From: Candidatus Gastranaerophilales bacterium
GTDB taxonomy: Bacteria; Cyanobacteriota; Vampirovibrionia; Gastranaerophilales; Gastranaerophilaceae
Direction: 5' to 3'
NCBI GenBank assembly: GCA_944324475.1
Contig: CALUWK010000002.1
Location: forward strand, 33,387-97,386
DNA: 64,000 nucleotides
The translations under genes were made by a program, and so were the position numbers. Shown piece after piece: positions 1 to 35,492 of the stretch (the stretch's first letter is position 1; every line of letters begins with the position of its first letter). Below the pieces are notes generated by a model, which was not told the DNA's origin, made no database searches, and saw only the letters and a program-made list of their open reading frames with translations.

Positions 1-21
1 AAAACTGCCCAAAAAGTCTAA

Positions 22-50
22 TTGGAAAAAAAAGTCCAATATGCTATAAT
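22..50 (+). promoter_or_regulatory. sigma70-like promoter (TTGGAA - 17 nt - TATAAT) upstream of the ABC ATPase gene
   Basis: TTGGAA at 22-27, 17-nt spacer, TATAAT at 45-50. A GAGGA Shine-Dalgarno lies at 63-67, before the GTG start at 74. Confidence 0.45.
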
Positions 51-73
51 TCCCCATAATTAGAGGAAAAATT

Positions 74-1021
74 GTGGATAAAATTTTAAAAATTAAAAAT
101 TTAAGTACAGGTTTTTATATAGAAGACAATTTTTATTTCGCAATAAATAATATAAATTTAGAATTTGAAAAAGGCAAAATCCACGCAATAGCAGGTGAGT
201 CGGGGTGCGGAAAATCTGTTTTTATTAATAGTATTTTAAAGTTACTTCCAAAAAATGCAAAAGTTGTCTCGGGAGAAATTTTATTTAACAATCAAAATAT
301 TCTTAACATAAGAGAAAAAGATTTTAATAAAATCAGAGGAACAAAAATTTCTCTAATTCCGCAAGACCCTTTTATGTCACTCAACCCATTATATAAAATA
401 GAAAACCAGCTACTTGAGGTCAATTTTCTAAAAAATAAAGACAAAGAACAAGCCAAAAAAATAATTATAAATGCACTTGAAGAAGTTAAAATACAAAATA
501 TTGACAATGTTTTAAAATCATATCCACATGAATTGTCAGGTGGCATGAAACAAAGAATAATAATAGCTATGGCACTTATTTCCGATGCAGAACTTATATT
601 AGCGGACGAACCAACAACAGCGCTTGATGTTAGTGTATCAAATTCAATATTAAATCTACTATTAGAACTTAAAAATAAAAATAAAACAATAATCTTAATT
701 ACACACGACTTATCTATTGTGTATAATTATTGTGATACAGCTACGATAATGTATCTTGGAGATATAGTTGAAAATTCAAACGCAAAACAACTTTTTAAAT
801 ACCCAAAACATCCCTATACAAAAGCATTAATTGAAGCACTACCAACATTACGTGGAAGAAAATTAAAAAATATTAAGGGACAAATTTCACCTATAACAAA
901 TACAATAAAGGGTTGTAAATTTCATCCAAGGTGCGAATGTAAAAAAAATATATGCCTAGAACAAAAACCTGTCTTGAAAACAGTTGATAGCAGCAAAATT
1001 GCTTGTTGGTTATTTGAATAA
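74..1021 (+). CDS. oligopeptide/dipeptide-type ABC transporter ATP-binding protein (OppD/DppD class)
   Basis: Walker A GESGCGKS, ABC signature LSGGMKQR, Walker B LILADEPTTALD. The C-terminal extension typical of Opp/Dpp ATPases is present (HPYTKALIEALP, GCKFHPRC). GTG start with upstream SD. Confidence 0.9.
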   Translation: MDKILKIKNLSTGFYIEDNFYFAINNINLEFEKGKIHAIAGESGCGKSVFINSILKLLPKNAKVVSGEILFNNQNILNIREKDFNKIRGTKISLIPQDPFMSLNPLYKIENQLLEVNFLKNKDKEQAKKIIINALEEVKIQNIDNVLKSYPHELSGGMKQRIIIAMALISDAELILADEPTTALDVSVSNSILNLLLELKNKNKTIILITHDLSIVYNYCDTATIMYLGDIVENSNAKQLFKYPKHPYTKALIEALPTLRGRKLKNIKGQISPITNTIKGCKFHPRCECKKNICLEQKPVLKTVDSSKIACWLFE

Positions 1022-1025
1022 TAAT

Positions 1026-1054
1026 TTGTCATAGCATAAAATGGGTACTATAAT
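1026..1054 (+). promoter_or_regulatory. sigma70-like promoter (TTGTCA - 17 nt - TATAAT) upstream of the tandem paralog pair
   Basis: TTGTCA at 1026-1031, 17-nt spacer, TATAAT at 1049-1054, about 30 nt upstream of the ATG at 1086. Confidence 0.45.
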
Positions 1055-1085
1055 TATGAAAACACAGATAATATGAGAATAAATC

Positions 1086-2090
1086 ATGACAACAAATATA
1101 CACAAATACAATGGCGTAGAATGGTCATTACCATTACTTTTTCAACACGAACCAATATGGGATGCGATTTATAGATCTCTTAAAAATTTTGATATAACAA
1201 TACCAAAAGTAAATCTTTTTGGTTCGCCATCTAATATTTGGACCGGAGGGAGAGCACCTGCCATATACAAAAATATTAATGAAGAAACATTAATAAACAC
1301 TTTTAAATATTTAAAAAAAATTAACGCAACCCCAACTTTCACTTTTACTTCAACTCAGTTAACAAAAGAGGATTTAAAGGATGAATATGCGAATTTTCTT
1401 TTAGATATAGCTCTTGAAAATGATGCAAGATTTATAGTTTATTCTGATATATTAAGAGATTATATTAAAGAAAAAAAGTCTGATGCGTGTACAGTTGCAT
1501 CAGTAATAAAATCAAACTTTAGATTTCAAGGCCCAAATAAAATTGAAGAACCGACAGTTGAAAAAGAAACAAATTATTATAATAAATTACTCAAAGAATA
1601 TGATATTGTTGTAGTCAGACCTGAATATTCAATAACAACGCTAACGGAACATCCAGAATATATTGATGATATATCAAGAATTGAAGTTATGATTAATCAA
1701 CCTTGTATATATAATTGTCCCATGATGCCAGAGCACTACAGGTTTTTAGAAAAATTAAAATTAAAACCAAAAATAAATGAGCGTTTTCAATGCATAAGAA
1801 AAGATATTCCCAAAAATATTTTACTTGAAAACACCTTAGCACACCCACAAAAAATTGTTGAAAAACTTGTATACGAAAATGGAGTAAAAAATCTTAAGCT
1901 CCAAGGGAGAGGAACGGACACTCCAATATGTTCTCTAATTCACATATTGAGTAATTTGATGTTTAACCAAGATGGAAATGGCTATCAAATATTTGCACAC
2001 ATTCATAAAACACTTGAAATTTCGATGCAAAATTTTCAAAACATAACAAATAACTACAGAGATACGACAGTATGCCAAAAGAACTTTTAA
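1086..2090 (+). CDS. hypothetical protein, paralog A of a tandem pair (no family recognised)
   Basis: 334-aa ORF. It aligns along its full length with the next ORF. The central 131 aa (INATPTF...MINQPCI) are identical to paralog B, while the termini are only weakly similar. Conserved QPCI(Y/F)NCPM cysteine motif. Confidence 0.7.
   Translation: MTTNIHKYNGVEWSLPLLFQHEPIWDAIYRSLKNFDITIPKVNLFGSPSNIWTGGRAPAIYKNINEETLINTFKYLKKINATPTFTFTSTQLTKEDLKDEYANFLLDIALENDARFIVYSDILRDYIKEKKSDACTVASVIKSNFRFQGPNKIEEPTVEKETNYYNKLLKEYDIVVVRPEYSITTLTEHPEYIDDISRIEVMINQPCIYNCPMMPEHYRFLEKLKLKPKINERFQCIRKDIPKNILLENTLAHPQKIVEKLVYENGVKNLKLQGRGTDTPICSLIHILSNLMFNQDGNGYQIFAHIHKTLEISMQNFQNITNNYRDTTVCQKNF
1318..1724 (+). repeat. 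direct repeat copy 1 (393 nt perfect identity, then 1 mismatch and 13 more matches) inside paralog A
   Basis: By direct comparison, 1318-1710 is identical to 2304-2696 (offset 986 nt). The first mismatch is at 1711 vs 2697. Confidence 0.9.
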
Positions 2091-3031
2091 AATATAAAAA
2101 TACAGAATGGTCGATACCAATTTTTATAAACAATATTCCTATATGGGGTACGATAAATGCTATTCTTCAACAGTTCAAGTTTGAAATTCCCAAGATTAAT
2201 TTAAGCGGAAATGTTTATAACTTATGGTCAAACCACAACAAAAATATACCTTATGAAAAAATACCTAAAAATAAATTAAAAAATATAATAGAATACACAA
2301 AAGAAATTAACGCAACCCCAACTTTCACTTTTACTTCAACTCAGTTAACAAAAGAGGATTTAAAGGATGAATATGCGAATTTTCTTTTAGATATAGCTCT
2401 TGAAAATGATGCAAGATTTATAGTTTATTCTGATATATTAAGAGATTATATTAAAGAAAAAAAGTCTGATGCGTGTACAGTTGCATCAGTAATAAAATCA
2501 AACTTTAGATTTCAAGGCCCAAATAAAATTGAAGAACCGACAGTTGAAAAAGAAACAAATTATTATAATAAATTACTCAAAGAATATGATATTGTTGTAG
2601 TCAGACCTGAATATTCAATAACAACGCTAACGGAACATCCAGAATATATTGATGATATATCAAGAATTGAAGTTATGATTAATCAACCTTGTATATTTAA
2701 TTGTCCCATGCCTTGCATAATAAAAGAAAAAGAAACGGATGACGATACAGTAAGCAATTTTAAATGCATAAAAGAAATTATCAGAAATAAAGATGTAATA
2801 AAACAAAATGTTTCACATTCTAATAAAGACATAGTTAAACTCATAAACAACGGGGTTTCAAAACTTGCCATGCATGAATTTGATTATAATAAAACACCTA
2901 TTGACATACTTCATCAAATATACAATCTAATGTTCAATAATAATGGAAAATACTATCATGTCTATAATTTAATCGGTGTAAATTCACTTGAAAAAGAAAT
3001 AAATTATTTTAAAAACTTTTTTGATTCATAA
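2072..3031 (+). CDS. hypothetical protein, paralog B of a tandem pair
   Basis: 319-aa ORF whose start overlaps the end of paralog A by 19 nt. It has the same architecture and an identical central block. Confidence 0.7.
   Translation: MPKELLKYKNTEWSIPIFINNIPIWGTINAILQQFKFEIPKINLSGNVYNLWSNHNKNIPYEKIPKNKLKNIIEYTKEINATPTFTFTSTQLTKEDLKDEYANFLLDIALENDARFIVYSDILRDYIKEKKSDACTVASVIKSNFRFQGPNKIEEPTVEKETNYYNKLLKEYDIVVVRPEYSITTLTEHPEYIDDISRIEVMINQPCIFNCPMPCIIKEKETDDDTVSNFKCIKEIIRNKDVIKQNVSHSNKDIVKLINNGVSKLAMHEFDYNKTPIDILHQIYNLMFNNNGKYYHVYNLIGVNSLEKEINYFKNFFDS
2304..2710 (+). repeat. direct repeat copy 2 inside paralog B
   Basis: Identical to 1318-1710. The flanking coding sequence is strongly diverged on both sides. 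Confidence 0.9.
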
Positions 3032-3569
3032 TTTTTTCAAACAACGACAAAGAAAATCCAACTACATTATCAATATTACCCTCAATTTTTACAACAAAAT
3101 CAAAATTGTTATCTTGAATACCATAGCTTCCTGCTTTATCAAAAGGTTTGCAATTTTCAATATATTTTTTTATATCAACCGATGACAATTTTCTAAAAGT
3201 TACATTAGTTGTTTCAGTTTCAACCACAACATCGTCTCCCTTAATCAAACAAATTGAGGTTGCAACAAAATGAGTACGATTTGATAACATTTTTAGCATT
3301 TGGAATGCATCATCATAACCATCAGGTTTACCCAGAATTTTATTATTCAAAACAACAACTGTATCTGCCGATACAATAGATGAATCACTATCAACTCTAT
3401 TTTTTACATCCAAAGCCTTTTGCAGTGCACAATTTTCAACAAGTTCCTTTGAATATTCCAAATTAGAAATATTTTCAACATAAAAAGAAGGTACAACATC
3501 AAAAATATAGCCTGCATTAGATAAAATTTCTTTTCGCCGTGGAGAAGCACTTGCTAAAACTATTTTCAT
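3009..3569 (-). CDS. maf: Maf-like nucleoside triphosphate pyrophosphatase (septum formation protein Maf family)
   Basis: N-terminal KIVLASASPRRKEIL and overall Maf-like sequence. I prefer the ATG at 3569, because the ORF-track start at 3596 lies inside the tsf terminator stem. Confidence 0.85.
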   Translation of the reverse strand: MKIVLASASPRRKEILSNAGYIFDVVPSFYVENISNLEYSKELVENCALQKALDVKNRVDSDSSIVSADTVVVLNNKILGKPDGYDDAFQMLKMLSNRTHFVATSICLIKGDDVVVETETTNVTFRKLSSVDIKKYIENCKPFDKAGSYGIQDNNFDFVVKIEGNIDNVVGFSLSLFEKIMNQKSF

Positions 3570-3586
3570 AACTAAATTATACACAA

Positions 3587-3612
3587 AAAACGCCATTAAA
3601 AAATGGCGTTTT
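3587..3612 (-). terminator. rho-independent terminator after tsf
   Basis: The stem AAAACGCCAT / ATGGCGTTTT has a 6-nt loop. On the minus strand it is followed by a T-run (TTTTTTGTGT). Confidence 0.7.
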
Positions 3613-3638
3613 AGTATTATTTAGTATTAAAATTGACA

Positions 3639-4514
3639 TTAACCTTTTATTTGATTCATAACTTCTTGCGCAAAATTGTCTTGTCTTTTTTCAAGACCTT
3701 CACCAAGAACATATCTTTCAAATCTAACAATTTCACACTTTCCATCAATTAATTGCGAAATTGTTAAATCGGGATTTTTAACAAATGGTTGCTCCAAAAG
3801 ACATCTTTGAGACATTAATTTGTTAACTCTACCTTCAACAATTTTTTCTCTGATTTGTTCAGGTTTATTTGCTAAATCTTCTTTGCCCATTTCAATACGT
3901 TTTTCTTCTGCAATAACTGAAGCCGGAATTTCGTCTCTTGAAACAAACTCGGGAGCATTTGAAGCAATATGCAAGCAAATATCTTTAGTTAAAGTTTCAT
4001 CACAATTATTACATTTTGCTTCCAATAAAACACCTATTTTGCCATTATGAATATATGTATTAACACAACAACCAGCATCATATCTGACAAATCTTCTGAT
4101 TGTAATTTTTTCGCCAATTTTAGCGATTCTTTCTTTGATTACTTCTTCTATTGGTTTTTTGCAAACAGGGCAGTCCATTTTAACCAATTCATCAACAGAA
4201 GTTGGATTTAATTCCAAAACTGCCTTAGCCATCATGTTTGCAAAGTCTTTAAAATCATCATTCTTTGCGACAAAATCAGTTTCGCAATTTACTTCAACCA
4301 TTGCGCCAATTTTTCCGTCAACAACAGATGCCACAACACCTTCTGCTGCAATTCTGCCCATTTTTTTATCAGCAGAAGCCATGCCTTTTTGTCTTAAAAG
4401 TTCAATTGCTTTATCCATATCACCATCGGTTTCAACAAGAGCTTTTTTAGCATCCATCATACCGGCGCCGGTTTTATCTCTCAATTCTTTTACCATTGAT
4501 GCTTTTATTTCCAT
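3639..4514 (-). CDS. tsf: translation elongation factor Ts
   Basis: N-terminal UBA-like VKELRDKTGAGMMDAKKAL. The rest is EF-Ts-like and the gene sits immediately downstream of rpsB. Confidence 0.95.
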   Translation of the reverse strand: MEIKASMVKELRDKTGAGMMDAKKALVETDGDMDKAIELLRQKGMASADKKMGRIAAEGVVASVVDGKIGAMVEVNCETDFVAKNDDFKDFANMMAKAVLELNPTSVDELVKMDCPVCKKPIEEVIKERIAKIGEKITIRRFVRYDAGCCVNTYIHNGKIGVLLEAKCNNCDETLTKDICLHIASNAPEFVSRDEIPASVIAEEKRIEMGKEDLANKPEQIREKIVEGRVNKLMSQRCLLEQPFVKNPDLTISQLIDGKCEIVRFERYVLGEGLEKRQDNFAQEVMNQIKG

Positions 4515-33866: not shown

Positions 33867-35492
33867 TTACTTTATATTTTGAAATTTTGAAGAAAAATAT
33901 TCCTCGCCTTTTTTTGTAATACTGTATTTATTGGAGCCCTCGCCGCTAAATAAATCAATATAACCATTTTTCATACATTCATCAATAATTGACATATCGG
34001 CAATTTTACCGGTTGCAGGAAAAATTTTAGAATTTATAAATTTCATTGAAAAATTATCTTCATGTAGCATATTTTTAATATAATATGCGCAAATAAGAAA
34101 TTCATCTTTCAATTCATTCACATTAAAACCGGAAAGAAATAAATGAAAATCAATAACAGGCCCTTCAATTTTTGCCCCACTTTGCACTTCATCTTCTTTT
34201 TGTTCAGCTACTTCCAATTTTTCAGTCAATTCCTTTGAAACAATTTCATTCTTATCAGAAAAGTTAATATTATTGTCATTTAAGGAAATTTCTTCACTAT
34301 CAAAAAAACCGTCGCCTTCAACCAATTCGCTTTTAGTCGACAAATGAGAATCATCGGCAATTTTTTTAGTGTCGTCAAACGCTTGTATATCTGAAATTAC
34401 TTCAATATCCTCATTTTCATTTGTTAAAACATTTTCCTCTAATGCTTCATTTAAAGCTGTTATTGTAATTTCACTCTTTTTTGAATTTTCAATATTTAAA
34501 TTATTCTCATAAGAAGAAAAAATATTATCTACCATTGATTGATTATTTTGATAATAATTTATTTTATCATTGGAATTTTTAATTTTAATTTCTTCAATTT
34601 TTAAATCTTTTTTAGTTTCATATTGAATACCGTTACTATCATCACCAAAAATCTCTAATTCTTTATTTGATTCTTTTCGATTATCGTCCTCATTAAACAA
34701 ATTGACAGAATCCATCTCACTTTCAATAAGTTTTAAAATATCATCAATATTGCCTAAATGATTAGCAGTATCATTTTGCTCTTTCACATTTTTATTTTCA
34801 TTATTTGAAATTTTATTATCACTATTTAATATATCATCCCCACAACTATCTTTAATTGAACTTACTTCTTCAATGTTTCCAACAAGATTTTTATCCAAAA
34901 TCTCAGATTTAATTTCAGCCTCATCTACAGATTCATTTTCCACTTGTTCGGGATGTGTTAATTCATCTAAACTCGCTTGGTAGACAACTTCTGTTTTATT
35001 ATCATTAACAACATTGTCATAATTTTCCTCAATACTTTCAGATTTGTTATCAGAAACATTTGATTCTTCAATCTGCACGGCTTCAATGTCGTCATCTTGA
35101 GAAGAAATTGAACAATCTTCATCTGCAGATTGATTTTCTGTTTGTTGAGAAAGTGTTAATTCATCTAAACTCGCTTGGTAGACAACTTCTGTTTTATTAT
35201 CATTAAAAACAGAAATATTATCATTTAATGATAGATTAGCTTGACCTTCACCAACTTCTTCAAGATTCATTACGGAAGATTTTTCACCAATCTCAGCTTT
35301 TTTTTCAAATTCATCGATTGATTTTAAATTTTCACTTTTTATTTCAATTTTTTTTATCTTTGAAATAAAATCATCACTAACACCAAAAATGTACGCAAAA
35401 TACATATCCATCTCTCTTTGCGTAACTATTTTATCATTAGATTCAAGTATAAATTCGCTATTTTGCGATTTTATTTTGATGTTATAATACAT
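33867..35492 (-). CDS. highly acidic hypothetical protein with an internal 66-aa repeat and a globular C-terminal domain
   Basis: 541-aa ORF. NDNKTEVVYQASLDELT occurs twice, 66 residues apart. The middle is D/E/N/S-rich, and the C-terminal ~100 aa are non-repetitive (FLICAYYIKNML...KYSITKKGEEYF). Confidence 0.65.
   Translation of the reverse strand: MYYNIKIKSQNSEFILESNDKIVTQREMDMYFAYIFGVSDDFISKIKKIEIKSENLKSIDEFEKKAEIGEKSSVMNLEEVGEGQANLSLNDNISVFNDNKTEVVYQASLDELTLSQQTENQSADEDCSISSQDDDIEAVQIEESNVSDNKSESIEENYDNVVNDNKTEVVYQASLDELTHPEQVENESVDEAEIKSEILDKNLVGNIEEVSSIKDSCGDDILNSDNKISNNENKNVKEQNDTANHLGNIDDILKLIESEMDSVNLFNEDDNRKESNKELEIFGDDSNGIQYETKKDLKIEEIKIKNSNDKINYYQNNQSMVDNIFSSYENNLNIENSKKSEITITALNEALEENVLTNENEDIEVISDIQAFDDTKKIADDSHLSTKSELVEGDGFFDSEEISLNDNNINFSDKNEIVSKELTEKLEVAEQKEDEVQSGAKIEGPVIDFHLFLSGFNVNELKDEFLICAYYIKNMLHEDNFSMKFINSKIFPATGKIADMSIIDECMKNGYIDLFSGEGSNKYSITKKGEEYFSSKFQNIK
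34956..35009 (-). repeat. intragenic direct repeat copy (about 54 nt perfect)
   Basis: GTGTTAATTCATCTAAACTCGCTTGGTAGACAACTTCTGTTTTATTATCATTAA occurs twice with a 198-nt (66-codon) period. Coordinates are hand-indexed, +/-2 nt. Confidence 0.8.
35153..35206 (-). repeat. intragenic direct repeat copy (about 54 nt perfect)
   Basis: Second copy of the same 54-mer. Coordinates are hand-indexed, +/-2 nt. Confidence 0.8.

Follow-up and report, generated by a model that had tools for sequence, protein, structure and literature searches.

Domain-limited and recurrent concerted evolution has been described for mtrA-1 and mtrA-2, 2 paralogs encoded in the same operon (2015, PMC4632066), and long-lasting recurrent concerted evolution has been catalogued for 26 prokaryotic genes (Wang & Chen 2018, PMC6053082). 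Gene conversion likewise acts on tufA/tufB and on the ribosomal RNA (rRNA) operons of enterobacteria (PMC5485169, PMC8022953). In this work, we describe a pair of tandem genes, A and B, that share an internal stretch of 393 nucleotides (nt) without a single difference despite strong divergence on both sides of it. The genes lie in a 64,000-nt stretch of DNA (the window, 29% G+C) from the genome of a Candidatus Gastranaerophilales bacterium (GenBank assembly GCA_944324475.1, contig CALUWK010000002.1, positions 33,387 to 97,386) and belong to an unstudied protein family.

Similar to the cases of concerted evolution cited first, A and B are paralogs of one operon in which one part is repeatedly homogenized while the other stays distinct, the paralogs resemble each other more closely than orthologs do, and the pattern appears in several lineages. 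Unlike in those cases, the homogenized block is internal, bounded on both sides, and embedded in the single-domain barrel of an uncharacterized family; furthermore, its time depth lies within one genus instead of hundreds of millions of years, and some tracts have decayed. What A and B would share with tufA/tufB and the rRNA operons is non-reciprocal exchange of the RecA type that keeps duplicates identical over homology-dependent tracts. Those copies are dispersed and homogenized over nearly their full length, whereas A and B are adjacent direct repeats of which only 39% to 41% per gene is affected. The phenomenon as such is already known, and A and B are a very clean, recurrent, and domain-limited case of it in an unstudied family.

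The closest described proteins are those of the Peptidase U32 superfamily (PF01136), which includes UbiU/UbiV, RlhA, and TrhP and is structurally represented by Mk0906 (5d88). Members of the A/B family share with them a predicted triosephosphate isomerase (TIM) barrel, alignable E-x-[LF]-x-[NH]-[QG]-x-C and K-[LI]-[QE]-G-R strand motifs, a conserved Cys cluster after a barrel strand, and, as for ubiU-ubiV, the adjacency of paralogs. They differ from U32 proteins by remaining below the Pfam threshold, by a CX3CX24C arrangement with an additional His, and by lacking the U32 C-terminal domain. UbiU and UbiV themselves are adjacent U32 paralogs that form a heterodimer in which each protein binds a 4Fe-4S cluster via 4 Cys residues (PMC6747719).

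Results

A sharply bounded block of identity between 2 diverged paralogs

The pair had been singled out by a reading of the sequence alone (referred to as the original prediction) that claimed 393 nt of perfect, sharply bounded identity between 2 otherwise weakly similar proteins, and our comparison bears this out (Table 1). Positions 1318-1710 and 2304-2696 agree at all 393 nt and form the maximal exact block at an offset of 986, while the identity of 30-nt windows just outside drops to around 27% to 67%. At the protein level, A and B are only 35% identical over 77 amino acids (aa) on the N-terminal side of the block and 29% identical over 87 aa on its C-terminal side. BLAST extends the matching region to 1313-1724 and 2299-2710, a total of 412 nt with 2 mismatches. 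One of these, the A/T difference at 1711/2697, is non-synonymous (Tyr/Phe within QPCI[Y/F]NCP), and beyond the 13 identical bases encoding NCPM the 2 sequences are wholly diverged. Both copies display the cysteine motif QPCI(Y/F)NCPM that had been noted for them, with the Tyr/Phe alternation arising from this single base and NCPM being conserved.

The block is the sole long repeat in the window, and the genome holds no further copies besides A and B. Chance as the origin of this identity is excluded, because at the ~77% per-site identity of orthologous cores the probability of 393 matching positions would be 0.77^393 or ~1e-45. An embedded RNA or mobile cassette was considered and rejected: The block has no match in Rfam or among plasmids or phages and is colinear with the family alignment.

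Homogenized cores recur in sister species with different edges

All data analyzed here, including those from related genomes, are short-read metagenome assemblies; genomes are labeled with G (G000 being the window's own) and individual loci or contigs with L. Among 25 genomes of the window's genus, 12 carry 1 to 3 tandem copies, and these arrays share one place downstream of an ABC ATPase gene and upstream of Maf. Exact central blocks between tandem copies were found in 2 more species, spanning 408 nt in G001 and 361 nt in G005. Comparison of these orthologous loci shows that the block boundaries move, with codon mismatch maps placing the tract edges (in residues of A) at 79-209 for G000, ~91-226 for G001, and ~100-219 for G005. 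Older, partial core tracts with 80% to 97% identity and exact runs of 22 to 61 nt are seen in G003, G010, L038, and L116. No recent tract was found in the pairs or triplets of G009, G021, and G037 (core identity of 50% to 70%), and G002, G014, G017, G019, and G024 have a single copy only.

We calculated synonymous divergence (dS) along the alignment by the method of Nei and Gojobori, for which the core comprises ~66 synonymous sites. Between the paralogs of G000, G001, and G005, dS is 0 in the core (0 of ~66 sites) and 1.4 to 2.7 in the flanks, save for a value of 0.62 in the N-terminal flank of G005. Core dS amounts to 0.84 between the orthologs of G001 and G005 and to 0.73 between the paralogs within G003 and G010. 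Core identity amounts to 100%, 97%, and 96% within genomes compared to 75% to 87% between species, and the genes neighboring the array are 68% to 82% identical between species. The divergence of orthologous cores and of these neighboring genes implies that the conversions post-date speciation and occurred independently. Across the family, conservation of the protein peaks in the core (60% to 87% aa identity, compared to 37% to 62% for the N-terminus and 30% to 56% for the C-terminus). GC-biased conversion was rejected, since the G+C content at third codon positions (GC3) of the core is lower than that of the flanks and likewise low in unconverted copies.

Phylogenies of flanks and cores are incongruent. 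In the flank tree, the sequences of G001, G005, G003, and G010 cluster by copy (first copies with first copies and second copies with second copies), whereas in the core tree the same sequences cluster by genome. For the flanks, the approximately unbiased (AU) test rejects a within-genome clade with p = 2e-41 for G001 and p = 1e-12 for G005. These data show that the central region has been converted repeatedly, independently, and recently, and the locus displays the marks of concerted evolution, i.e., paralogs closer than orthologs, incongruent trees, and independent recurrence with shifted edges. The proposal of recent gene conversion homogenizing a central module is thus upheld by the dS contrast, by recurrence with moved boundaries, and by the flank trees. 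Perfect identity is thus not a peculiarity of a single assembly whose relatives have cores as diverged as their flanks. The same prediction had offered, as another option, that termini are shuffled around a constant cassette; this part is not supported, because the flanks are passed on vertically and show orthology copy by copy, the tracts have different boundaries in different species, and neither a recombinase nor a silent cassette lies nearby.

A canonical and a degenerate copy

Gene A encodes the motifs GGR (aa 54-56), C207/C211/H217/C236, and KLQGR (~aa 270-275). In gene B, GGR is replaced by NHN and KLQGR by AMHEF, H217 is lost, and an extra Cys215 is present, while the 3 invariant Cys residues and the predicted fold are kept. 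Similarly, members of the copy-2 lineage (G001_2, G005_2, G003_3, G010_2, and P0048) have GGR replaced by GGQ or GGT and lack KLQGR, and distant family members also lose GGR and KLQGR jointly, which points to a likely active site. None of the conversion tracts that we observed includes either motif. This motif content suggests a pairing of a canonical with a degenerate copy in which B may be a non-catalytic or re-specialized partner of A. The ~190 flank codons of B are open in DNA of such low G+C content, where ~8% stop codons would be expected in random sequence, and we therefore infer that B is under selection.

A protein family with a probable remote relation to Peptidase U32

A homolog search returned ~127 close family members, nearly all of them from gut metagenome-assembled genomes (MAGs) of Candidatus Gastranaerophilales / Melainabacteria. 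Distant relatives with 24% to 30% identity are common in gut MAGs of Lachnospiraceae (L057-L115; Acetatifactor, Eisenbergiella) so that the family extends beyond Melainabacteria. Neither Pfam nor NCBIfam gave anything significant for A or B, PADLOC returned merely a chance-level Csx1 match for the proteins, and a sequence profile produced only chance matches in the PDB. The statement that the family is unrecognized thus holds for Pfam and NCBIfam and needs correction at greater distance, where the family is probably a remote relative of Peptidase U32.

Structure prediction with AlphaFold (AF2) yielded the same confident beta/alpha (TIM) barrel for both proteins, with predicted local distance difference test (pLDDT) scores of 93.8 for A and 91.4 for B. 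Foldseek ranked the U32 peptidase Mk0906 (5d88) first for A (E 2.4e-5; template modeling (TM) scores of 0.46/0.59) and second for B (E 4e-5); other TIM barrels rank close behind so that the fold match alone is weak. Matches to Peptidase_U32 below the cut-off were found for 22 of 52 diverse members (best E 2e-4), and the next recurring family among these was PIN_3 with 5 members. Using hhalign, the family aligned to a bona fide U32 alignment over 143 columns with a probability of 86% (E 5e-6), compared to probabilities of 48% and 30% with single-sequence templates. A single-template alignment pairs the strand motif EVLINQxC with ELEMFVHGAQC and LKLQGR with FKIEGR.

The residues C207, C211, and C236 are invariant, as is H217 among close members, and their spacing does not match the 4-Cys pattern CX6CX15CX3/4C of U32 proteins. 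Because of this difference in Cys spacing, we do not count the family among Peptidase U32 (PF01136) and regard it as a remote U32-like relative instead. The conserved residues would be suited to form a putative metal or iron-sulfur (Fe-S) center via C207/C211/C236 together with H217 or, in B, with C215. The genome of the window also encodes 2 bona fide U32 proteins (407 and 596 aa) that carry the canonical 4-Cys motif (G000:C4:65232-65918 and G000:C1:93037-93714; L035, L036), and the A/B family is therefore an addition to the standard U32 enzymes and no replacement for them. In another lineage of Gastranaerophilales, a single family member is encoded directly 3' of an rRNA dimethyladenosine transferase gene (RrnaAD/KsgA; L033:6136-8050). 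By analogy with the U32 enzymes RlhA and TrhP, this context may be a weak hint at a role in RNA modification.

Genomic context of the array

Genes A and B are arranged head to tail and, as had been predicted, overlap slightly and follow an Opp-type ABC ATPase gene, for which we found both the ABC_tran and the oligo_HPY domain (Table 1). The pair had also been credited with a promoter of its own, and the best sigma-70-like match within positions 1-3700 indeed lies immediately 5' of gene A as a predicted promoter. Upstream of the array, a gene for a DUF2229 protein followed by the lone OppD-like ATPase is conserved across the genus (L027:1779-2936, L030:2763-3908), and no permease or binding protein adjoins this ATPase. 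The ATPase gene borders the array directly in some species, and in others a SecA-like gene intervenes. In sister species (L043:1973-3487, L116:1-1026), the latter encodes a protein of 504 to 528 aa with P-loop_SecA, SecA_DEAD, and SEC-C domains; it is absent between the ABC ATPase gene and the array in the window's genome.

Two further elements of the window were recorded. Between Maf and tsf, positions 3587-3612 form a perfect hairpin with an 11-bp stem and T-runs on both sides that looks like a bidirectional intrinsic terminator. A second and much smaller direct repeat at 34921-35211 (93 nt, 89% identical, 198 nt spacing) probably represents a repeat internal to a minus-strand coding region.

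Table 1. Features of the A/B locus (positions in the window; ORF, open reading frame).
Feature	Position	Strand	Evidence or remarks
Lone OppD-like ABC ATPase (ABC_tran + oligo_HPY)	74..1021	+	Upstream; syntenic across the genus
Promoter-like site TTGTCA-17-TATAAT, 11/12	1026..1054	+	Consensus match; between ABC ATPase stop and gene A start
Gene A	1086..2090	+	ORF, 334 aa; canonical family member
Conversion tract, gene A copy (aa 79-208; barrel strand beta3 to strand bearing first Cys)	1318..1710	+	Exact identity, dS 0, model secondary structure
3' edge of tract: one A/T difference (Tyr209/Phe209), then 13 identical bases encoding NCPM	1711..1724 (partner 2697-2710)	+	Direct comparison, BLAST
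Overlap of gene A end and gene B start, 19 nt	2072..2090	+	ORF list
Gene B	2072..3031	+	ORF, 319 aa; degenerate paralog
Conversion tract, gene B copy	2304..2696	+	Exact identity
Maf gene, convergent; 3' end overlaps gene B end by 23 nt	3009..3596	-	Syntenic right-hand border of the array

Discussion

We consider it very probable that A and B are old tandem paralogs whose 393-nt identity stems from recent non-reciprocal homologous recombination, i.e., gene conversion. The underlying process would be RecA-type exchange between direct copies that is limited to the center of the genes, where alone the nucleotide identity would suffice for an exchange to be initiated and resolved. Such central confinement would follow from the core being the most conserved part of the family, with 60% to 87% aa identity compared to 30% to 62% in the flanks. 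Once a tract has become identical, further exchange inside it would be easy, and the island could thus be self-sustaining, with flanks too diverged to be reached. As the flanks carry the canonical or degenerate versions of the end motifs GGR and KLQGR that distinguish the copies, selection probably removes tracts that enter the flanks and overwrite these motifs. The tract edges may be set by a homology limit together with a selection limit or by the former alone. That neither gene has been lost next to a repeat prone to deletion suggests a need for both.

Any such account has to face the possibility that the perfect identity was created during assembly, either because the cores are in truth similar and not identical or because only one gene exists and a collapsed or threaded repeat simulates a second copy. 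Reasons for this suspicion are the short-read origin of every sequence and the behavior of the repeat in 2 data sets. On scaffold L026:5680-6639 (ENA ERZ28614667 scaffold_8434), which comes from the same strain, the pair appears as a single hybrid gene, P0002, composed of the N-terminus of A, the core, and the C-terminus of B; this scaffold has low coverage and an N-gap in the neighboring gene and is otherwise identical. The MEGAHIT contigs of the closest relative, E02_bin289, stop at the 3' end of the core and resume there with 127 nt of overlap, which is suggestive of the break that a repeated core would cause. Three further assemblies from 2 studies (L027, L028, and L029), however, match the window at 100%. 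L027 and L028 hold both copies with the block, and the 1.9-kb L029 holds gene A and the first bases of B only. Since a one-gene genome cannot yield the N-terminus of B or the C-terminus of A, which are present across these assemblies, 2 genes must exist. Moreover, assemblers kept core differences of 3% to 20% in G003, G010, and L116, and the same pattern is found with different edges in 2 other species. Polishing to 100% would have required a pair with an identity of ~97% or more to begin with, and even this would still imply recent conversion, so we regard an assembly artifact as quite improbable. For the hybrid P0002, collapse of the tandem repeat in a scaffold with a gap is the most likely origin, though P0002 could be a true deletion variant mediated by RecA. 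Its presence in one sample of the same strain is also what might speak for programmed switching, in which the direct repeat would serve as a crossover site that toggles between 2 genes and a hybrid of A N-terminus and B C-terminus or shuffles the termini. This seems highly implausible, given that L026 is of low quality and has the very form expected from repeat collapse, that it is the sole variant next to 4 identical assemblies, that the reciprocal hybrid was not seen, that tract edges differ between species, and that the array is flanked by genes for an ABC ATPase and Maf with no recombinase, invertase, or silent cassette nearby.

A different question is whether the identity of the cores is itself favored. 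If A and B formed a heterodimer like UbiU-UbiV, identical cores might be advantageous, for instance by forming a symmetric interface or by sharing a cofactor site, and converted alleles would have been fixed by selection instead of by neutral exchange within the limits of homology. Several observations would fit: The pairing of a canonical with a degenerate copy is conserved in at least 5 species, no tract reaches GGR or, toward the 3' end, KLQGR, and the U32 paralogs UbiU and UbiV are encoded adjacently and form a tight heterodimer (PMC6747719). Furthermore, A and B have both been retained even though a direct repeat of 393 nt should favor deletion. Identity is not required, though, as G009, G021, and G037 keep pairs or triplets at 50% to 70% core identity; in addition, G002, G014, G017, G019, and G024 manage with a single copy, and the GC3 of the core adds no signal. 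We therefore see selection-driven homogenization as an unlikely explanation. Equally doubtful is a more far-reaching version modeled on UbiU/UbiV, in which the family would be a new U32-like branch of metal or Fe-S TIM-barrel proteins composed of a catalytic subunit and a degenerate partner, with core conversion kept by selection for their co-evolution. If this were true, only the motif-bearing ends (GGR, the His/Cys loop, and KLQGR) would be free to differ, and domain-resolved concerted evolution would be a mechanism that keeps a heteromer compatible.

Some points weigh against recent gene conversion between old paralogs of a U32-like family as we have set it out. With short-read assemblies, bubble-popping could turn a pair of ~97% to 99% identity into one of 100%. 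For the flanks in G000, the AU test rejects neither a clade of A and B (p = 0.14) nor one joining B to the copy-2 lineage (p = 0.07), so that B may have either origin; its flanks are highly diverged, with a branch of 1.63 compared to a median of 0.34 and no database protein above 40% (N-terminus) or 36% (C-terminus) identity. Regarding the family, the U32 link is remote given TM scores of 0.46 to 0.59, matches below the Pfam threshold, and the absent 4-Cys spacing, and A and B themselves have no Peptidase_U32 hit even at E<=1.

On the practical side, the locus is a warning for metagenomics, because it fragments or collapses in short-read assemblies and chimeric database proteins such as P0002 can result. 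As a biological system, it shows with unusual clarity how internal conversion tracts with sharp boundaries occur naturally in bacterial tandem paralogs, and the sister species show such tracts at several ages from perfect over partly decayed to absent. This set could be used to study tract lengths, homology thresholds, and the balance of conversion and deletion in an uncultured phylum. Beyond that, the analysis draws attention to an unstudied family of ~320-aa proteins, remotely similar to U32, in gut Melainabacteria and Lachnospiraceae.

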